Origin: Escherichia phage vB_EcoM-673R5
Length of the DNA stretch: 64,000 bases
Strand: one strand, 5' to 3'
Sequence record: ON470615.2
Both the position numbers and the translations under genes were made by a program. Numbering within the stretch: position 1 is the stretch's first letter; the number at the start of each line of letters is the position of its first letter. The notes under the pieces are model-generated. The model was given only the letters and a program-made list of their open reading frames with translations. It did no database searches and had not been told where the DNA came from. Positions 7,737 through 24,316 of the stretch are shown piece by piece.

Positions 7737-7988
7737 ATGGATAAGAAAATATGCGTTGTGTCGATGAGCGTCGGCAAACCGGCGTCAATGACTGCTGCAT
7801 GGATCAATAACGAGCTGATAATGGCTGAGCGGACCAGCTACCCTGAACGCCGCCGCGATATGGAACTCCAGCTGCTGCGCGAATTGCGAGAAAAAGAGGA
7901 AAAGGGTTTTATCGTGCTGGTGGAAGAGGAAAACAGCTTTATTACTGGTCGAGTTGGCCAGCGTGTAAGGTTGCGCGATCCTTCATGA
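7737..7988 (+). CDS. hypothetical 83-aa protein (P1 mat position)
   Basis: ORF downstream of late-promoter box; stop overlaps next start (ATGA at 7985-7988). Confidence 0.45.
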   Translation: MDKKICVVSMSVGKPASMTAAWINNELIMAERTSYPERRRDMELQLLRELREKEEKGFIVLVEEENSFITGRVGQRVRLRDPS

Positions 7989-8353
7989 ACGGCAGGCCGG
8001 TACTAATTGAGGCAATGCAGATTTATAAGGAGCTGGAACGCCAGAAAGCAATCAAGTTACCGCGCAAGGAATCCGGCAAATACATTCTCCACCAAAGCAT
8101 CTTCGATTCCGAACACGATAAAAAAGGCGATGAATTTTTCAACATCAACTGGAGCGAAATAACGACAGAGCATGTTCTGACGTTACTATGTTGCTTTGCG
8201 ACGGAATACAACAACGTTGCCAGCGCCGACTACATCAGGGCAATGGCTGGAGAAGTTGAGGCCCGCCAAGAACCATCGTTACTAAGTCCACTGATTAACA
8301 TAATTCTGGGCACCCAGATACTGGAACAAAAAAAGTGCCGAAAGGGGTATTAA
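7985..8353 (+). CDS. hypothetical 122-aa protein
   Basis: ORF translationally coupled to 7737-7988; no recognisable motif. Confidence 0.45.
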   Translation: MNGRPVLIEAMQIYKELERQKAIKLPRKESGKYILHQSIFDSEHDKKGDEFFNINWSEITTEHVLTLLCCFATEYNNVASADYIRAMAGEVEARQEPSLLSPLINIILGTQILEQKKCRKGY

Positions 8354-8469
8354 CAGGCAAGCATAATTATTTTTAACAATTACATACAGTAATTTTGTGG
8401 TTACATTCTCCATTGATTTTCTAACCGCTTTATCATTAGATGTAACAGCATGTAAATCATTTAAAATGG

Positions 8470-9578
8470 ATGAAAGCAATGGGGAATGAAGTTTATCAAA
8501 GTCAAAAATGCAAGTTGAAATATTCAAAATCTCAAATTGATAGGGCTGCTCAATTGATAAGGCACGGGTGTAGTGACGAAGAAAGGCAGCAATCTATTGA
8601 AATGATACAAAATTTCCGTGAGCTGCATCTTTATCCATTAATGCTCATGAAAAATCATTTAGCAAGAGCAGCTGCTAAGGTTGACAAGGACAAAAAGATT
8701 CTCGTTGCAAGAAGACTTAAGCGACTTTCTACCATAATAGATAAACTAGAGCGTCCTAGTCTTGATGGAGGCAGAACTAGCAATGCAATTAAATTAACAC
8801 GGATGCAGGACGTTGGCGGATGTAGGGCCATTGTCAGAAACTTAGACCAGTTGATACAGCTAAAGGAACGTCTTTTAAAAAGCAAATCTGTTCATAGGAT
8901 TGTTAAAGAGTATGATTATCTTACTCCCAAAGACAGCGGCTATAGTGGAATCCACCTTGCATACAGTTGCTTCGATCAGAAGAGGATCAATATCCGTGGC
9001 GAAAAACAAAGATTGAGATACAGTTAAGAACTCAATTGCAGCATGCTTGGGCTACCAGCCTTGAAATAATTGATACCCTTGAAGGTATCAAGCTGAAAAC
9101 TTCAAGTGAAGGGCATCCAGAATGGAGACGATTTTTCTATCTAGCCGGATGTCTTGTAGCGCACGACGAAAAAGCCTGCACTCTTGATGAGCTAGTTGTA
9201 TCTCAGTATGAAGGCGAGCTTAAAGAGCTGGAACGGACTTTATCTGTACGGAGGAAACTAAGCACATACACCATCGCCTTAAATTTAACTTCTGACGCGA
9301 ATTTGATTAAGAAGTTGCCAAAAAATCATAAGGGGCATTACTTAGTAACAATGAGAAATGCAGAAAACAAGCCCAATACAAAAAACAAAAAAATGTTCCT
9401 AGTGTCTGTTCGCGCATTTAAAACAAAAGAAGCAGATGAAGCCCTTGAGGCCTTAAATAAAGACGATTCTAATCCTAATGTATTGATATCTGTTCTCGTT
9501 GCTACAGATAACATTAAGTCACTAAAAAAGCCTACCCCAACTATTTTGGCTCAACAAACCAGTTTACAAAATTCTTAG
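8470..9578 (+). CDS. fused RelA/SpoT-domain toxin (toxSAS, CapRel-like); frame broken once in an A5 run near 9005
   Basis: ORFs 8470-9027 and 8967-9578 join to about 369 aa; RelA/SpoT synthetase motifs (DVGGCRAIV, GYSGIHLAY, EIQLRTQLQHAWA); AT-rich vs flanks. Confidence 0.65.
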
Positions 9579-11197: not shown

Positions 11198-14100
11198 TCA
11201 TAATCTGACGCCCGGACTCATGGGTACCGAAAATGGCATTGGTGACCTCAAGTTCAGAATCCCCGTTACGAGTAGCCCCTGGCTTGTTTTCTCCGGCATT
11301 TTTGCGATCGCATCCGCTATTTTCTCCTGAATTGCTTCAGGGGATAGCGTATCTCCGTATGACGCGATTACATCGCCATAATTGGAGCCAAACAATTCAA
11401 CCAGGAATGTTTCTGCCGAACGGATCTGGCGGTTATTCCCTTCCGACATCATACCAAGCACCCATTTTGCAATTGACGACTTCAGCGCGCCGTCACGGCG
11501 ATCCGGGTAAACCGCATGCTTCAGTGGGTCCGTATAGGTGCCAACAAAATCAATGCTATAGCCTGACTCTGTAGTCTGAACGCCGTATGAGTCAGTGATT
11601 TTGATCATGCCGCGCTGCTGGAAACGGTAGAAATCGTCACAGGAAATGATGTCGTTAATCCCGGCGATGGAGACGCCACCACTGATTTTCTGCATAACAG
11701 CATCTTCATCGGGAGTTACATCCACCTGTTTATCCAGCGTCTTCACATCCCAGTTACCCGATTTGGTGCCTTTGAAGGTAAAGATGATCTCCACGTCTGC
11801 GCGCTGGCTGTCGAAGTCCAGCGACTTAATGCGAACGATATCACCGGCACAATCATAGTATTGGCCTACACGCCATGAGCGATCGCCGATAACAAGGAAC
11901 TCATTCGCATGGTTAACCAGATCAGGATCAACATCCAGAATGCCTTTATTTATTGCATCCTCCACCAGCGGGCGCAGGCGTTTGATATCCGTCGCGGCCT
12001 TCTGAGTACGGTTCAATAATTTCTCATAGCGGGAGATGGCCTGAGAGATATTAGCCTTGCGCTGAATGGCGCTTTTCAACGACGCGCGATACTGTGCTAA
12101 CAACATACGGTCTGTGTGATGGACGCTACCCCAGCGGGCTTTCCAGTCTGCGTTATCAGCTGCTTTGGCCATTACCGCCTGTTTGAATTTGGCGACGTCG
12201 GCGGTGGTCTTTTCAAGTTCCGCTTTGCTTCGCTCCAATTCAGCGGTAAGTACCTCCACATCCTCACCAGCTGCGTGCTGCGCCTTGATGTAGTTCTGAA
12301 GGTCGATAGTAGCCTGTTCTTTCTGGCGAGCGCGTTTCGCAGCTTTCGCCTTATCCATTTGAACCTGCATCATTACCAGACGTTCGCCATCATCCTTAGC
12401 GGTATACATCTGCATTTCGATCATATCGTTGGCGTCGGCGTTCTCCATTTCTGACTTATCTGAACGGAGGATATCGGAGATCCAGCCTGCTTTACGCTTC
12501 AGCGTCTTCAGTCGGTATTCATCGAAAGAACCCTTGCCGCAGTAGTAATGAACGCGAACGCTTGCACGGTTGGAGCCAACTCGAGCACCGCGACCGTTAC
12601 GCTGTGCGATACTGGCTGGTGTCCATGGCAACGTCAGATGATGGATGTCAGTCGTTCCTCGATGCAGGTTGATACCCACCTCTGCCTTTTTGTTGCAGAT
12701 GATGATCGGAGTCCGGCCCTCCTGGAAGTCGGCTGCAATCTTTTCCAGACCGCCCAACGACATTTCATTTTGCTGCGCGATATAGGCGTCATACAGAGCC
12801 ATTTGCTCGTTGTATTTCGCTATCTGTGCATCTGTTGGTTCATCCGGTAACTCTTTCGGCGGTTTAACCGCTTTCAGTTTCTTACCGGTTTTACCTGCCT
12901 CGGCAACCGTCTGAGCATTCAGGATCCCCACCTTTGAAGGTTCAAGGTTAAGAGCATTGCAGATAATGCGCTTGAGCTTCTGGTGCTGCGTTTTTCGTCC
13001 GTGAAGATGATTTGCTTACCTTCCGGGAAAAACGCCTTCAGCGTGGCGATCAGCTTCGCGTATTTGGGTGTAACGGGGTGAGTTACGGTCTGTTCGTCAA
13101 TGCCAAACTTGGCCAGGCGATTATTCACTTCCTGCTCAAATGCTTCCGGTACCTGCAACTGAATAAACTCGCCCTTATCTATCAGGGAGTATTGCGATTG
13201 CTGCGTGATCGAATCATCACTGTCGTCGTCTTCGCTGGTGGCTTGTTTAGGCAAACTGTCCGCCAGCTGCTGCACCGCATCGGCGTACTCCGGCAGGAAA
13301 CGATAGGTGATCCTGCGATAGTACAGGTCCATGTCAGTACATACGCGGTCCATATCCCTGATTATTGAGAAGATCGGACGGGCTTTCTCGTGCTCAATCA
13401 CGCCGTCTTCATTGACCGAGGTCGTTACGCCATTGTTGGCTTTGGCTGCCGCTTCCGCCTGCTGACGCAATTCTTCATACGCCGCCAGTTGTTCTTCCGT
13501 AAGTGGTGCATCCTGCTGGTGTTCGTCCAGTTCCGGGATCTCCACGGTATCCTTAACGTCTTCCGCCGTTTTAAGCGTTGTCCAGCGATGGAATATGCCG
13601 CGCAGCGCATCAAGGTTTTCAAAGCCCACCAGCGCCATTTTTTCTTCAACTTCACCGCTGATTTTCTGTACCGTTTCCAGCCTGGTCTTGCCGAAGAATT
13701 TAACGAAGTCATCAGGACCGTAGATCCCCATCTTCTGCCAGTATTCCTTCGGCAGCACATGAGAAAGCATGTTGTATGCATCGATCGGGGTGTTAACGAC
13801 TGGCGTTGCAGTCAGGAGAACCGGTCCGCGCCCACCATTCTTTTTCATCAGGTACGCGTTTTTAATTGCCATATCCCGCGCCGATTGCGCCACCGCGCTG
13901 GTGGGCAGATAGGCCAGTTGTGACGCTTCGCGACCATTTTTATAGCTATTGCGGTAGTTGTGACCTTCGTCAGCGATCACACTATCGAAGCCCATATCCT
14001 CAAAGTACGGATACTTCTCTGCTTTTTCGGTGCCGGTATCTGAATACTCCGACAATACCCGGCGACGCGCGGCCTCTTTGCGGTGGGAGTCGGAGTCCAT

Positions 14101-17100
14101 TGCGCTGGCTACGCGCCCGGCGGCAACGAAGTCATAAAGCATATCCTGTGCATGCTCATCTACGGTGTCATCACGTAGCGGAATGCGGGCGTATTGTTCT
14201 TTGGTAAACACGACTGCACGGTAATTTGAGTGCGGGATCGCGTTCATCCGCGCCGTGATAGTGGCTTCATCTGCCAGTTTTAGGGCATCGCGCATAACTG
14301 GAGTGCCATCAGTACCAAGAACAGGTTTACCGTTCTCATCGAGCACCGGCACCTGGCGAATCTGATCGCCATCCATCAGCACATCAAGACCGACGAACAG
14401 GTAGTTACTGAATGCCTCTTCACTCAGGAATTCTTTTGCTTCGTAATACCAGTTTTCCAGCACTGATTTAGGCACTACATACGCAGTACGGGTGGAGCGA
14501 CCGTTCTCATAGTTGAACGCCTCAAGCGCCAGCGCGGTCGTAGTTTTACCCAGCCCGGTGCCGAAGCCCAGGATGCCGCGCCCATCTTCGGACAGTCGGC
14601 GCACTTCGCTATTCTGGTAATCAAATGGCTGGCGCTTACCGCTTAATCCCTTCAACCCAAGCGGATCGCCAGAGTGTTCATACGGGATATTGCTATTGAA
14701 CACATCGTTGTATTTGGCAACCAGTTCATCGTAGCGATCGTGCGTCTTGATCCACTTATTGAACTGGTCCTCAAGCAGTGCCATCTGCTCGCGGTAGCCG
14801 TTCGCCGTCGCGCTATCTTTGCCACCGATACGCGCACCATTGAGATACTTTTCCAGCTGTGCCGGGAACCCGGTCGCGTTTTCACCTGATTTACGGTCCC
14901 ACTCGTAGCGGATCTCGCCTGTTTCTTTATCCTTGCGCTGGACGACACCGTATCGGTGCCCGACGAACAGGCCATCACCACCGTGATAGGTGTCAGAAAC
15001 CATTTCGTCGCCTTCCAGCTGCACTGACTGCACATAGCGCAGATCCGGATAGCCGTTTTCCTGCAAAAACTCCAGAATGACGGAGCGGTCGAACCAACGG
15101 CTATTGAGCTTAAAGCGGATATTCTCTGCTGGCGTCTTGATGCGCTTCTCTTCGATCGCTGCCAGCTGATTAAGGACGTTGTTCTTTACTGGACCGTCGG
15201 GGAGTGTGGCAAGGAATTCCTGTTTTGGAGCCACTATCTCGTTAATGTCGCCGCTGGTGGCGCGGGCGAACGGAACAATCCCGCCATACGGAGAAACCGC
15301 AATACCAGGAGTGCTGGCCAATAAATTAAGCAACTCTTCATCACTGGCTGGCAGTTCGCCGGTAAACGCAAGGCGGAAATCATCGAGCTGGATTGGATCG
15401 CGGGTAAGATCGCTATAGAGATAACGCAGGGTGTCCTGATAGCTGGTGGAGTCATAACTGGCGCTGGAATCATGCGTAACCAGCTTTCCTGTTAGCTCGT
15501 CAGAAATAGTGCCATCCAGCTTAATTGCACCACGGAAAGCAAACCAGGCGCGCGCACCGCTTCCCGATAATTTAGCTATCGGACCGCGACCGGGGTTACC
15601 AAAACGGTCAATCTCTGCCTGCAAACGGGACACCAGAGAAAGGCGCTGCTGTTCGATTTGTTCAGCACTATGCCCGGCGGCCTTCATATCCTGATATTCA
15701 ATTAACATCCGGCCAATCATCGCCCCACGATACAAGCGTTCACGGTATTTTTCAGGCTGGCTGTTAATCCAGTCCACCAGCTGCACCATATCGTCGCTGA
15801 TTGATGTGGTGTACTTATCGCGGACATTTGCCATCTGGGTAAATGTCATACCGAGACGGCCTTCTGTTGTAGTCAGGTTACGCTGAAGAGCCTCCCAGCT
15901 ATCCGCGCCATAACTGGCAGCATCAATCTTAAGCTCCTTACCAGCATCAGCTTCAATCCAGCGACCACCAGCATATTTTTGCCATACGCCATTAATCAGG
16001 CGCATTTCCCCTTCATCAACAACATCTGCGGTCGGTGACGGTTCAGCCATATCGAGCAAAGACCAGTCGATACGACTTTCGAAACGATGAATCAGCTTCG
16101 CTTTAAGAGCCTGGTTATCAATCTGACCGTCGGCACGAACCTCAATACGCCCCTGGAAGCCCTTTTCCTGGGTGCCATGAACAAACCGGCGGCCATCCTT
16201 TTCAAACCACTTGCCAGAAATAAACGTTGGCCAAAGCACATTTGCCGATTCAAGAGTGCTTTCATCCACCAGGGGATTTTCTCAGCCATCTCTGCCGGAT
16301 GTTTGCGCATCAGCACCACATCAACGACTGTACTGGTCCCGTTTGCGTCAAAAGTACCGGTAGGCAAGCGGTGAGCGCCAAGAAATTCAGCTTTACGGGA
16401 TAAGCGCAGGCGTAACCGCTTCATGTTTGAACCTGAAACAATGGACGGCGGCACAATCACGCACATGAATCCGCCTGGCTTTATCTTGTCCAGCATGCGG
16501 AGCATGAAGTAAGAACCCATGTCCGTTTCTTCTGCGTAAGGCTTATCGATGTTGCGTGTGTTATCACGACCGCCGAACGGAACGTTACCCACAACATGGT
16601 CGAATGAATCGTTAGGCGTGCTTATAGCCAGCTGTTCGAACGGGGAAATCTGTACGCTGTCTTCCGGGTGTAACAACTGGTTTATACGACCGGAAACACT
16701 GCTGATCTCAGTCGCGGTCATCACCGTACCAACCGGTTTTGTCTCATTAAAAACGCCGGTTCCCGCCGATGGTTCCAGAGTGTTACCTACGTCCGCGCCG
16801 TAGAGCTTCATGATCTCCCAGACACCTTCAGCGATCGGCTTTGGTGTGTAATATTCGGAGACGGACCCGCCAATGCCGCCTTCACCGGTGTACCCAGCCA
16901 GGATCTGGCGCTGTTCATCTGTCAGTGTCGCGCCGTCCACCAGCGAATTAAGCAAATCTATCGCCTTCTGATTCGCCTCCCGGCGCAGTCGGTCATAGCT
17001 TTTGCCTTCCACCTTTTCCACGCCGTATTTAATCGGCGCTCGGTGAGATGTTATTGCCCTAATGTATTTCAATATTTCGCTGACACTTGAACAGCGAAAC

Positions 17101-17123
17101 ACCCCCATAAATAGCTTGTTCAT
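11198..17123 (-). CDS. darB: DarB antirestriction protein (methyltransferase-helicase fusion); frame broken at least twice
   Basis: ORFs 16092-17123, 12919-16269, 11198-12931; N6-MTase-like motif VVGNVPFG, helicase Walker A GFGTGLGKTT and DEGH box (VIADEGHNY); break at 12919-12931 spans a C4 run. Confidence 0.7.
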
Positions 17124-17132
17124 TGGTAATCC

Positions 17133-17156
17133 TTAACAAGTGACTAGTGTTAAATT
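17133..17156. promoter_or_regulatory. putative divergent late promoter box (darB / portal)
   Basis: Near-palindromic AACAAGTGACTAGTGTT followed by TAAATT; between divergent darB and portal gene. Confidence 0.35.
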
Positions 17157-17189: not shown

Positions 17190-18920
<1,731 letters not shown>

Positions 18921-18924
18921 ACGG

Positions 18925-20150
18925 CAAACATTCCCAATTCACAGAGTCCGACCTAAACCACATGAAGCGGCTTAGGAATTACAGACTCTCCAAGGGCTAA
19001 CACTGCCAGCCCGGCAGCTTTTATATTACGGGCCGCGTTAATATCACGATCATGCTCTGCGCCACATTCCGGGCAGTGCCATTTACGAATATTAAGAGGC
19101 ATTTTTTGCATGGTGAAGCCGCAACTGCTGCAACGTTTGGAAGAAGGGAAATACTGGTCGATAGCGACAATGCTACGTCCACCCCATTCTCCTTTGTACT
19201 GGAGTTGGCGTACAAGTTCGCTCCAGCCTGCGTCAGCTATTGCTTTAGACAGCTTCGGGTTACGGATCATGTTTTTCACTTTAAGGGATTCGACGCAAAC
19301 AACTTGGTTTTCGTTAATCAGTTTGCGGGACAACTTATGCAGGTTATCCATCCGACAATCGACTATTCTCGCGTGGAGGCGGGCAACCTTTAAACGTGCT
19401 TTGGCGCGGTTCTTTGAGCCTTTTTGTTTCTTGCTCAATCTGCGCTGTAACACTGCTAATCGCTTCGCGTATTTAGCGTTGTGTCGAGGATTGCCAGTTT
19501 TAAAACCGGTATCGGTGACGAACAAATCTTTTAAACCAATATCAATGCCGACCGTGGAAACGGTGATCGGCAGTGATACAGGCTCAAACTCGCAGAGACA
19601 GGATACAAAATATCGTCCGGCAGCATCCCCTGGTGATAGTGACAGTGGATGGAGCAGACGGCAACGGACGGCTCCAGCGAACATCTAACGGCTCTTTGCT
19701 CTTTGCCATGTACAGCTTGCCGTCACGGTATTTAAATGCGCTGGCAGTTAGTTCTGCGGCCTGTTTATGCCGCTTGCTCTTAAAAACTGGGTATGCAGCA
19801 CGCCCGGCGAAAAAGTTAGCAAAAGCCGTTTGTTGGTGGCGCAGAGACTGCTGGAGGGGGACGCAGGAAACGTCATTCAGCCAAGCGAATTCTGGTTCTT
19901 TTTCAGTGCCGTTAATTTGGCGCTGGCTTGTGCATAGCCGACCCTCTCATGGCGTGCGTAGTACGCATCGGTGCGCCAGCGAAGGAGGCTGTTATAGACA
20001 AAACGCACACACCCAAAAGTCCGGGCTAATAGCTCGGTTTGTTCGGGAGTTGGATAGAATCGATATTTATAGGCACGCTTCATGTTCTATATAATACATT
20101 GAAACTAATGAGTATATAAATGAATACACGGACGAAAATGTTATCAAAGC
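18925..20150 (-). mobile_element. IS200/IS605-family element carrying tnpB only
   Basis: tnpB fills the interval between portal stop (18920) and protease start (20196); no tnpA; ends not mapped. Confidence 0.5.
18953..20083 (-). CDS. tnpB: TnpB (OrfB) of IS200/IS605 family; frameshifted
   Basis: N-terminus MKRAYKYRFYPTPEQTELLARTFGCVRFVYNSLL; C-terminal zinc-finger region (CSSCG...WHCPECGAEHDRDINAARNI). Confidence 0.7.
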
Positions 20151-20195
20151 CAATATACCAACAGACATTAGGTAAGGTAGCTGGAGGGCAATATA

Positions 20196-21215
20196 ATGAC
20201 TGATGTTTTGAAAACGGTCACTGACCGCTTTTGTCTCTATAGCAATGCTCGAAAAGGTCGCCAGAACGGGCGACAGTATGTATTAAGCGCGGTTAAGACC
20301 ATGCTTGAAAGCAAGGAAACTCAGGAAGGTTTACGCCTTGGAGAGCTTTTCGGCTATTACGGTCACGGTCGCCGACAGCTGACCGGCAAACTGGAAGTAC
20401 CAGAAACCAGCGTAATCATGGTGGAAGGTCGCCCGGTCGTAATCGACAATGTTCCAGCGTGCCGCACAGTGGCTATATCCGTTGACGACAACGGCATCGT
20501 TACCCATACACAGGAAATTCTTAACACAGAGCCGGGTAAAATTGTCGCCGCGATGATCGAAAGCCGAGCTGGTGGCTGGAGCTGGGCCACTGGCGGGCGT
20601 GAGTCCGGGAAAATCGCTGTAACCACCAGCTTCCATGGTGTGGATTATGTGACAACGCCGAACTATATCAGTCTGGATCATCCTGCCAGCGCCGGAATGT
20701 TTGAAAGCGCGGATTCTAAATCTTTACTGGCAGAGTCCCTGGCGGCGCATGGGTACTCCGACGAGTCAGTGCAGGCCGTTATATCCCATTACGGCAAAAT
20801 GGCTGAACTGGAAATGATGGTGGAGGCGACAGAGCGTACGGCAGAACTGGAAACTGCACTACTCGAAAGCCAGGGCCGCCACCTCGAAGCAATGGCCAAG
20901 ATCGCAGATGCTGAAGCGCGAATCGCTTTGCTGGAGGAAACAGCGGGTATCCGCGACGATGTGCTGGCAGCAATGCAAGACGAACTGGATAACCTCCCGA
21001 TCTTCGTCTCCGCCGCCCAAAAAGACGCATTCCGCCTCAAAGAACCTGGTGATGCAAAAATCGTTGCCACACTTTTCGAATCTCTGATCAAAGTTGGCGC
21101 ACGCAACTTGCCTGTCACCAAGAAAATTAAGGAGGTTCCGCAAGCGGCTAACGTCCAGGCACCGCGTGAGACAAGCATCATCACGTTTAATAATTCAATC
21201 AATCCGTTTAAATAA
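20196..21215 (+). CDS. head maturation protease (P1 pro position)
   Basis: 339-aa ORF with coiled-coil C-terminal half; synteny prt-pro-lyz. Confidence 0.45.
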   Translation: MTDVLKTVTDRFCLYSNARKGRQNGRQYVLSAVKTMLESKETQEGLRLGELFGYYGHGRRQLTGKLEVPETSVIMVEGRPVVIDNVPACRTVAISVDDNGIVTHTQEILNTEPGKIVAAMIESRAGGWSWATGGRESGKIAVTTSFHGVDYVTTPNYISLDHPASAGMFESADSKSLLAESLAAHGYSDESVQAVISHYGKMAELEMMVEATERTAELETALLESQGRHLEAMAKIADAEARIALLEETAGIRDDVLAAMQDELDNLPIFVSAAQKDAFRLKEPGDAKIVATLFESLIKVGARNLPVTKKIKEVPQAANVQAPRETSIITFNNSINPFK

Positions 21216-21225
21216 CCACCAAAAA

Positions 21226-21252
21226 TAACCCCGGCAGCTGCCGGGGTTCTCG
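21226..21252. terminator. bidirectional terminator
   Basis: Perfect palindrome ACCCCGGCAGCTGCCGGGGT followed by TCTCGTT. Confidence 0.5.
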
Positions 21253-22225: not shown

Positions 22226-22714
22226 GTGGCACAACGCGGTGTAAACAAAGTCATCCTGATTGGTACCCTGGGGCAAGACCCGGAGATCAGGTATATACCA
22301 AATGGCGGAGCGGTCGGAAGACTCAGCATCGCAACGAATGAATCATGGCGCGACAAGCAAACGGGCCAACAGAAAGAGCAAACAGAATGGCATAGAGTCG
22401 TTTTGTTCGGGAAACTTGCTGAAATTGCGAGTGAGTATTTACGAAAAGGTTCTCAGGTCTACATCGAAGGGAAACTTAAAACCCGTAAGTGGACAGATGA
22501 CGCCGGTGTAGAACGTTACACGACGGAAATTATCGTCAGCCAGGGCGGAACTATGCAAATGATCGGCGCCCGCCGCGACGATTCACAGTCCTCAAATGGC
22601 TGGGGGCAATCAAACCAACCTCAAAACCACCAGCAATACAGCGGTGGCGGCAAACCTCAGAGCAGCGCCAATAACGAACCTCCAATGGACTTTGACGACG
22701 ATATTCCGTTTTAG
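22226..22714 (+). CDS. ssb: single-stranded DNA-binding protein
   Basis: 162 aa; OB-fold N-terminus, Gly/Gln-rich linker, acidic tip DFDDDIPF. Confidence 0.9.
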
Positions 22715-22781: not shown

Positions 22782-22962
22782 TCTAGTAACTATAAGAGGT
22801 GTTAATTATTAATTGACAATCTTTAGTGTTTCGCGCACCTTGCAAGTATCCAATATTTACTGATTGTGGATGCATAAAGAAGATCCACAGCGTTACAAAT
22901 TTGTATTTCTTTCTTCAGCAATTAAGCAGGCGACTTGCTCTATCCTGCCCAAAGGAACACGT

Positions 22963-24316
22963 ATGACACACTGCAAAGAAAATACTTGGTATGAGCGTCA
23001 AGGGTACAATACCACCCGCCCGAATGAGATAAGGTCGGAGTATGAACGTGATCTTTCCCGGTTAATCCACTCTTCCGCTTTTAGGAGATTACAATCGAAG
23101 ACGCAGGTGTTGGGATTGGGCGAAAGCGATTTCTACCGTACGCGGCTAACTCACTCTATGGAAGTAGCGCAAATTGGCGGCGGTATCTTGTCTCAGTTGT
23201 CTAAGCGCGATACAGATGAGGGGGTAAATTCTTACCTGACCCAAGCCTGATGCAGGCTATCTGCCTTGCTCATGATATAGGACATCCCCCTTCGGTCATG
23301 GTGGTGAGGTCGCACTAAACTACTGCATGAGATCCTATGGCGGCTTTGAAGGTAACGGGCAGACACTGCGTATACTCTCCAAACTGGATAAGTACACCGA
23401 AACCAATGGGCTGGATCCCACCCGTAGACTTATTTTAGGCGTACTGAAATATCCAGCAAGCTATTCAGAGGTCGTCAATGAGAGGGCTTACAGCCAGTTA
23501 CAGCCAAGAAGCAATGAGTGGTTGTTTAAATCATCCGAATTTAAGCCCCCGAAATGTTACCTGGACTCTGAGGAGAACACTGTTAGATTCGCACTCCAAC
23601 CTTTTGATAGTGATGATGTTAAGTTATTCAAAACGGTAAAAACTACCGCGTTGAATAAGCACAAGGAAACAATATATAAAGCACTGGATACAACGATTAT
23701 GGACTTGGCTGATGAGATATCCTACTCACTCCATGATCTTGAAGACGCAATTTCTCTGAAGATGATCGACAAAAAAATGTGGGAGGAGCACTTCGAGGAC
23801 AAATCCCATTTATTTGCAGCTTGCCAATGCGACTCGTTTAATCTAAAAGCCGATGATGTAGCTGAAAAACTGTTCGGCGAAAGTTATCTACGCAAGGAGT
23901 GCATAGGGACACTTGTTCATCTGATGATCACTAGCGTTAAGCTTGAAGTGCAGAACTCTGATTTCAAAAGTAAAATTTTACGCTATAAAGTGGCACTTCC
24001 TGCCGCGGTAGAAGAGTTACGTAAAGCCATTTTTGAGCTGGTTAGGAACAAAGTTATTCAGCACGAAAACGTCCAACTATTAGAGTTCAAAGGTCAGAAA
24101 CTGATTGTGGAACTATTCAATGTACTGGCAAATGACCCAATACGTTTTCTCCCGACAGAAACTCGAAAGAAATATAATCAAGAGGAAGCAAAAGGTGATG
24201 ATAAAAAAATGCGTGTCATTTGCGACTATGTTTCAGGCATGACAGATGATTACGCTACTCGACTGTATGAGAAAATATTTGTACCGAGAAAAGGCTCTAT
24301 TTTTGATAGACTCTGA
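22963..24316 (+). CDS. dGTPase-family HD phosphohydrolase (dGTP triphosphohydrolase-like); one frameshift near 23250
   Basis: Motifs [24 protein letters not shown] and [15 protein letters not shown] typical of Dgt-type HD hydrolases; ORFs 22864-23250 and 23327-24316; lower GC than backbone. Confidence 0.65.

Follow-up and report, generated by a model that had tools for sequence, protein, structure and literature searches.

A TnpB element inserted between pro and its Shine-Dalgarno sequence in a P1-like phage-plasmid: a probable RNA-guided module on an apparently immobilised transposon derivative

The 64,000 nucleotides of Escherichia phage vB_EcoM-673R5 analysed here (sequence record ON470615.2; the whole stretch is called the window) contain a 1295 bp insertion at the junction of two late genes of a P1-like phage-plasmid, the portal gene prt and the head processing gene pro. 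The insertion derives from an IS200/IS605 transposon, carries the gene tnpB and lies exactly between the Shine-Dalgarno (SD) sequence and the start codon of pro. It is probably a retained TnpB/guide-RNA module on an immobilised element, and such a module would cut P1 relatives that lack the element. TnpB nucleases, from which Cas12 evolved, are considered to persist because they cut the "empty" allele that a lost transposon leaves behind. The element, its parts and the genes on either side are situated as follows.

18901-20195, minus strand: the whole inserted element, 1295 bp, with limits ambiguous by 3 bp (TAT/ATA).
20196-20199, minus strand: the target and predicted transposon-associated motif (TAM) TCAT, complement of ATGA, which is the pro start codon and the next base.
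20084-20195, minus strand: the left end (LE), 112 nt, AT-rich, without a stable hairpin, unique to P1-borne copies.
18953-20083, minus strand: the tnpB coding sequence, 1131 nt, encoding 376 amino acids in intact alleles.
18901-18952, minus strand: the right end (RE), 52 nt, with the hairpin GTTTGCCG-TTTA-TGGCGGAC and the terminal GTCAA.
18901-19025, minus strand: the predicted omega-RNA scaffold, which spans 125 nt or more up to the RE end and overlaps tnpB at its 3' end.
18881-18900, minus strand: the predicted 20-nt guide TATCGTTTCCCTCTTTAAAG, the flank directly 3' of the RE, containing the displaced pro SD.
17199-18920, plus strand: the portal gene prt, split by indels and with its C-terminus changed by the insertion.
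20196-21215, plus strand: pro, the head processing protein gene.
20183-20188, plus strand: the GGAGGG ribosome-binding site for pro, from the LE terminus, 7 nt before the ATG at 20196.

The limits were set by alignment to the empty site of P1 and by the conserved ends of relatives (Gifsy-1 gipA, Citrobacter plasmids, the E. coli bioA-ybhB locus and 79 loci of a genome collection). They replace the span 18925-20150 given in a preliminary description of this DNA. The 1295 bp are missing in P1 between ...GGGAAACGATA and ATGACTG. Along the tnpB strand, the sequence runs from ...CAGTCAT into the LE, which begins TATATTGCCCTCC, through tnpB to the RE, which ends GGCGGACAATTGTCAA, and then into a flank that begins TATCGTTTCCC and reads TATCGTTTCCCTC in longer form; the empty site of P1 is CATCAGTCAT^TATCGTTTCCC. 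GTCAA at the RE terminus does not vary among the relatives, and in one large subclass of them the LE starts immediately after TCAT. Both features are common to Gifsy-1 gipA, the Citrobacter plasmids, the E. coli chromosome and about 30 further loci. The element is thus inserted 3' of a short conserved target without target duplication, its junctions corresponding to the P1 empty site apart from the 3-bp ambiguity. An imperfect repeat at the junctions, GAGGG(A/C)AA..ATA(A/T)TGAC, was considered as a target duplication and rejected: its right-hand copy is the LE terminus, which is common to relatives at unrelated sites.

In P1 (NC_005856 / AF234172) prt and pro overlap by 8 bp (..GAT AAT GAC TGA / ATG ACT GA..), and the insertion point lies inside this overlap, between the SD and the ATG of pro. 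There is thus no portal-protease intergenic space in P1 for the element to fill, as had initially been supposed. On the plus strand the RE encodes the last portal codons, ..I D N C P P *, with the stop codon TAA at 18918-18920, and the end of the portal protein is rewritten from ..NDND* in P1 to ..NDIDNCPP* in the window. The original pro SD, GAGGG (18888-18892, plus strand), is stranded 1.3 kb away, beyond the RE. With a stop codon contributed at one end and a ribosome-binding site at the other, the element can occupy a late operon that is essential and translationally coupled, and the phage survives.

As written, the tnpB gene of the window reads as two open reading frames (ORFs), 19877..20083 (68 amino acids), which starts with the N-terminus MKRAYKYRFYPTPEQTELLARTFGCVRFVYNSLL, and 18953..19684 (243 amino acids), which includes the zinc-finger C-terminus CSSCG...CPECG. 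Both termini had been recognised in the preliminary description and are confirmed; the strand, which it did not state, is minus. Scored against the intact 376-residue allele WP_001312284.1 of near-identical plasmids, the frame is broken by one missing T at about 19898 and one additional C at 19627.

19898-19899: missing T in a T6 run, the first tnpB frameshift in reading order, a probable assembly error.
19627: extra C in a C-run, the second tnpB frameshift in reading order, a probable assembly error.

Taken at face value, these two changes would make tnpB of this plasmid a genuine pseudogene, which is improbable. Both fall in homopolymer runs, and positions 1-29031 of the window differ from the nearest relative, NZ_CP033882.1, by 41 indels of a single base, of which 36 are deletions, as against 4 substitutions over 29 kb, which is the signature of sequencing error. 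Indels of the same kind split prt (at 17513 and 17770), a darB-like methylase gene (ORFs 12919..16269 and 16092..17123) and a deoxyguanosine triphosphatase (dGTPase) gene (ORFs 22864..23250 and 23327..24316), and one splits the lysozyme gene (21895). Because indels far outnumber substitutions throughout the window and split other genes too, the tnpB frameshifts are almost certainly assembly errors and not decay. The apparent tnpB, portal and other "pseudogenes" of this record should therefore not be trusted in annotation. The dGTPase gene (22961-24316, plus strand) is an accessory gene that follows ssb (22226-22714) and is annotated as "anti-phage deoxyguanosine triphosphatase" in NZ_CP033882.1.

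The reconstructed 376-residue protein has the complete architecture of TnpB nucleases: a helix-turn-helix domain (HTH_OrfB_IS605, PF12323), the RuvC domain OrfB_IS605 (PF01385) and a zinc ribbon (Cas12f1-like_TNB, PF07282), all scoring above their Pfam cut-offs. The NCBIfam model guided_TnpB (NF040570, "RNA-guided endonuclease TnpB family") gives 358 bits against a cut-off of 100, and the gene is already labelled TnpB in RefSeq. The ISDra2 TnpB structures 8EXA and 8H1J are matched over the full length (E = 7e-77). The RuvC D-E-D triad aligns as GIDIGLKD, VCVESLK and HDRDINAA with gvDvgikd, gtEhlk and hdrDenaa of ISDra2, and the CxxC..CxxC zinc finger aligns as well, with both CSSCG and CPECG present. 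Residue numbering is that of ISDra2. The tnpB frame is uninterrupted in each of the seven RefSeq copies that were inspected and in two of the three from IMG/VR.

These residues also bear on whether the protein has been domesticated for a role other than that of a nuclease, as an RNA-guided repressor like TldR or as a virulence or host-interaction factor like GipA. Such a role is very doubtful. It would agree with the immobility of the element, the usual prelude to domestication, and with the closest phage-borne relative being annotated as the Peyer's-patch virulence factor GipA of Gifsy-1. However, loss of the RuvC catalytic residues, the hallmark of the nuclease-dead TldR proteins, is not seen here: the triad and the zinc finger are intact. 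Furthermore, the predicted guide matches only the element's own insertion flank, as in selfish elements, and no associated target gene is evident. TldR repressors (PMC10705468) are likewise immobilised tnpB derivatives on phage-related elements, with their guide directed at a host promoter, whereas here it is directed at the element's own empty site.

The predicted guide scaffold is conserved as well. An RNAalifold consensus of the last 125 nt before the RE end in 43 relatives consists of four helices with many covarying pairs. The window sequence forms standard pairs at 28 of the 28 predicted positions, including two pair types found in this sequence only. The RE hairpin is maintained through compensatory and wobble changes, unique compensatory pairs among them. 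The proposal that a guide-RNA region lies at the 3' end of tnpB, beside the portal stop codon, is supported. In an Rfam scan of the region and of four relatives no curated omega-RNA family was matched; RAGATH-18 (RF03064) was found below threshold only, at 18931-18996 of the window (21.8 against 44.9 bits, E = 0.51), and in none of the four relatives. RAGATH-18 RNAs are known guides of IS607 TnpBs (PMC11061315).

The predicted guide and TAM follow from the position of the element. The guide of a TnpB is the flank just past the RE, and its TAM is the transposon target. In ISGst elements the TAMs are equal to the insertion targets. By this rule the guide would be TATCGTTTCCCTCTTTAAAG and the TAM would be TCAT. 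TCAT followed by TATCGTTTCCCTCTTTAAAG is exactly the empty site of P1, and the intact combination is absent from the window, where the guide match occurs once and is preceded by TCAA of the RE instead of TCAT. An IMG/VR census matched 93 P1-like contigs, 92 of which could be scored: 63 have the exact TAM plus target, 22 have a T-to-G change at the second target position, 4 have other variants and 3 are occupied. The module could thus, as predicted, cut most element-free P1 relatives. The 22 variant contigs (L163-L166 and 18 others) read CGAGA followed by ATGA in place of CGATA followed by ATGA, a change at position -2 to the pro ATG that turns the Prt terminus ..NDND* into ..NEND*. This TAM-proximal variant could be an escape allele or a plain polymorphism. 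A near-copy of TAM and guide is also present inside prt (17594-17609, minus strand), TCAC followed by TATCGTTTCCGT, which agrees over the first 10 target bases, departs from the TAM by one base and has one mismatch further on. It probably arose by chance, and is conceivably an off-target site in the carrier itself.

The apparatus for transposition has not been maintained in the same way. Folded as DNA, the LE of the window has an energy of -2.5 kcal/mol (z = +0.95), which corresponds to no stable hairpin, whereas the LE of a Citrobacter relative (L012) contains a perfect 8-bp GC stem, CCCCGGCC-TTTA-GGCCGGGG, with a matching hairpin in its RE. Subterminal hairpins are found in the relatives about 18 nt (LE) and 10 nt (RE) from the cleavage sites, as in IS608-type elements; in the window only the RE hairpin of the pair is there. 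A search for a mobile parent with the AT-rich LE returned 25 plasmid matches, all of them P1-like, at this locus and 100% identical. The absence of tnpA noted earlier is borne out, in that the best tblastn match to the IS200C TnpA over the 64-kb window had E = 0.46, in a search that a divergent Y1 transposase could escape; no ORF adjoining the element is free to be one. Neither the element nor the window thus has a detectable Y1 (HUH) transposase of the kind found in mobile IS200/IS605 elements. Lack of tnpA is the defining trait of the IS1341-type TnpB-only subgroup.

Multiple copies at multiple sites, which are expected of a mobile insertion sequence (IS), are also lacking: the prt/pro junction of P1-like replicons is the only site, and there is no second one in 72,556 plasmids or 5,426 E. 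coli genomes. Because it has no tnpA, no LE hairpin and only one site, the copy in the window is best read as a fixed, immobile IS derivative and not as an active IS. The initial classification as a TnpB-only IS200/IS605 element therefore holds for its origin and not for its present mobility. That the element is still active, with TnpA acting in trans, is extremely unlikely. Relatives are multicopy in Serratia and Klebsiella genomes and the tnpA of IS200C is aboard some carrier plasmids, but IS200C is not the same element and is lacking in both the window and pMS6198C, and neither the element nor its LE has a second copy in the collections named above. In NZ_CP033882.1 IS200C, with its tnpA, is situated just downstream of pro (7817-8508, corresponding to window 21220-21236). 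A Y1 transposase is thus sometimes, though not always, co-resident with the TnpB element.

In its ends the element resembles IS608, which also inserts 3' of a 4-nt target without duplication and has an RE ending in TCAA. IS608 encodes TnpA and targets TTAC, whereas the element here has neither TnpA nor an LE hairpin. IS608 and other IS200/IS605 elements are the "peel-and-paste" transposons that He et al. are said to have treated in 2015.

The segment is missing from P1, P7 and about 95% of P1-like plasmids, which agrees with the expectation that the insertion would be absent from P1-like genomes. Carriers make up 23-25 of about 490 P1-like plasmids in PLSDB and 39 of 5426 complete E. coli genomes (at least 98.7% identity), and the context was alike in all those inspected. 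IMG/VR contains 3-4 occupied P1-like contigs, as against the 63 exact empty sites. The next closest element anywhere is 85% identical. The gene is accordingly not a universal backbone gene of P1-like phages, nor is the element part of a larger composite one. An unusual arrangement is found in the E. coli ST2747 chromosomes NZ_CP007392-4 (L005), where the element occurs with pro, lysozyme and ssb beside truncated P1 genes (ref, ant) and non-phage genes, and prt is missing upstream of the RE. This locus is a rearranged, chromosomally integrated or mis-assembled P1-like remnant.

Insertion at a start codon is common among the relatives. Of 31 independent TCAT-type relatives, 24 have a target TCAT that complements the start codon of an ORF 80 or more amino acids long and directed away from the LE, compared with 34% of control TCAT sites in the same flanks (p = 1e-6). 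The flanking ORFs include recognisable N-termini, such as MiaB-, GrxB- and PdxB-like proteins and signal peptides (loci L011-L076, e.g. L038:1390-1400, L039 and L049). The E. coli chromosomal relative is situated before ybhB and the Citrobacter plasmid relative before trbC. Most LEs of the relatives have CCTCC 7-9 nt from the junction, which places GGAGG before the flanking ATG, and the complement of the displaced native SD is found in the RE-side flanks. A second subclass of left ends, in which TTATCA is followed by ATTTGCGCGTAAG.., has a different target.

The closest parallel in another phage is gipA of the Salmonella prophage Gifsy-1 (AF246666 / NC_010392), which has 79.6% nucleotide identity over tnpB and the RE. 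It is likewise a TnpB-only element lying antisense within a phage morphogenesis operon, and its LE, with CCTCC in the terminus, abuts the ATG of the next structural gene, a gpU homologue, via the same TCAT target. Unlike the element described here, the gipA copy keeps a GC-rich LE hairpin, resides in a lambdoid integrated prophage and is recorded as a virulence factor.

The insertion separates pro from its late promoter, as had been predicted, and the following sites bear on how pro may be transcribed.

17138-17156, plus strand: the late promoter LPpro (-22 box and -10), upstream of prt.
20066-20095, plus strand: a candidate sigma-70-like promoter facing pro, TTTATA-18-TATAAT, 10/12 in a consensus scan.
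20091-20120, minus strand: a candidate sigma-70-like promoter facing tnpB, TTTATA-18-TATTAT, 9/12 in a consensus scan.

LPpro is the only late promoter for the prt-pro operon in the annotated P1 record and is intact in the window. No P1 late-promoter motif (-22 box and TANNNT) was found on the plus strand of the element, and the earlier statement that pro needs either read-through or another promoter stands. It would be reached either by read-through from LPpro, antisense to tnpB, or from the sigma-70-like site 20066-20095 in the LE; the two sites found by the consensus scan compare with 1.9 expected. Between 19003 and 20274 there are 8 terminator-like sites, each a hairpin with a T-run, as against 1.9 expected, and seven of them are antisense to tnpB, in the direction that transcription from LPpro must take to pro. 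One of the terminator-like sites, 19003-19017, is the complement of the first omega-RNA helix.

The following course of events would account for these features. An IS1341-type TnpB-only element would have entered once, in the ancestor of a minority lineage of P1-like phage-plasmids, presumably by means of TnpA supplied in trans. Entry 3' of TCAT on the bottom strand placed it exactly between the SD and the start codon of pro. Three properties may have made it tolerable: the RE completes the portal frame (ND* becoming IDNCPP*), GGAGGG of the LE replaces the displaced SD, and pro would be transcribed by one of the two routes described above. The LE hairpin, which in characterised members of the family is a recognition feature for TnpA, would then have decayed. 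The tnpB frame, the RuvC triad, the zinc finger and the omega-RNA scaffold, including the RE hairpin, have meanwhile been kept. TnpB loaded with an omega RNA carrying the guide TATCGTTTCCCTCTTTAAAG would recognise TCAT next to the guide match, a combination found only in element-free P1-type genomes, and the resident copy would be spared because its guide match is preceded by TCAA. Any element-free P1 relative entering or sharing the cell would then be cut by the module. This would favour the carrier, or recombinational repair would copy the element into the rival, much as a homing nuclease or gene drive spreads. As the copy appears unable to excise, its conceivable substrates would be limited to P1 genomes that are foreign or co-resident.

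A number of observations weigh against this reading. The TCAA that precedes the resident guide match is only one base away from TCAT, so that self-discrimination has to be assumed. The window copy is frameshifted as written and would be dead if the frameshifts were real, and one IMG/VR copy of tnpB has a premature stop. Weak terminator-like hairpins on the plus strand of the element lie in the path of read-through to pro. The element differs by 1.1% between the two most different carriers and its flanks by 0.6-2.6%; the signature of homing, an element far less diverged than its flanks, was thus not seen in this comparison. The pattern fits one old insertion handed down vertically as a tolerated passenger. 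At only about 5%, occupancy is unlike that expected of a strong drive. A role in homing or exclusion may be proposed for the module, while the low occupancy and the missing homing signature speak against a strong drive.

Several of these observations would be compatible with a neutral relic, that is, a dead but tolerated passenger that became fixed since it could not be excised and since the SD and stop codon that it supplies keep prt and pro working, with TnpB and its omega RNA inactive. This reading is unlikely, though it deserves to be taken seriously. Its single site, the lack of tnpA, the decayed LE, the similar divergence of element and flanks, the low occupancy and the truncated IMG/VR copy all agree with it, and at about 1% divergence an intact frame is weak evidence of selection. 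However, the decay is asymmetric: no hairpin is left in the LE, whereas all pairs of the RE hairpin and the omega-RNA helices are maintained. The catalytic and zinc-finger residues are all intact. Furthermore, the variable codons of tnpB among eight copies show an excess of synonymous changes (11 synonymous and 11 nonsynonymous, P = 0.01 against a neutral expectation of 75%), although this signal is modest, being based on 22 variable codons with 8 of the 11 nonsynonymous changes coming from one plasmid. A module that has lost transposition and retained its nuclease and guide thus remains the preferred interpretation.

Comparison with better characterised systems shows what such a module would have in common with them. 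ISDra2 TnpB and its omega RNA (Deinococcus radiodurans; 8EXA, 8BF8, 8H1J) share with it full-length homology, domain order, the RuvC D-E-D triad, the zinc finger and a guide scaffold that overlaps the 3' end of tnpB and the RE. The ISDra2 TAM is TTGAT as opposed to TCAT, and the present element differs in having no tnpA partner and no LE hairpin and in residing in a phage-plasmid late operon; its activity is predicted. Karvelis and Altae-Tran with their colleagues reportedly established in 2021 that the flank after the RE serves as the TnpB guide, and the transposon target 5' of the LE as its TAM. Phage homing endonucleases, whether free-standing or intron-encoded, cut the allele that lacks them, and their own allele is protected as its site is interrupted. 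The outcome predicted for the element is the same, with recognition guided by RNA, but the divergence comparison gives no evidence of homing in this case.

Within the library searched, there was no paper on start-codon insertion, the TCAT target, TnpB in P1-like plasmids or phage homing by TnpB. The P1 lineage, the start-codon and SD anatomy, and the asymmetry between the LE and the RE appear to be undescribed.

Two linked ideas may be put forward tentatively: that a P1 sublineage keeps the module as an RNA-guided weapon or gene drive, and that the TCAT-targeting clade as a whole is adapted to the gap between SD and ATG. If this is true, insertion by the TCAT clade would act not as a knockout but as a silent lodger in the 5' untranslated region, given that the target complements ATGA and the LE donates GGAGG at a spacing suited to an SD. 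In the P1-like lineage transposition has apparently been lost while the nuclease and guide are kept, and the only possible substrates would be competing P1-type phage-plasmids. E. coli and P1 thus offer a natural, genetically tractable system in which to ask if homing or exclusion between viruses or plasmids can be brought about by TnpB alone.

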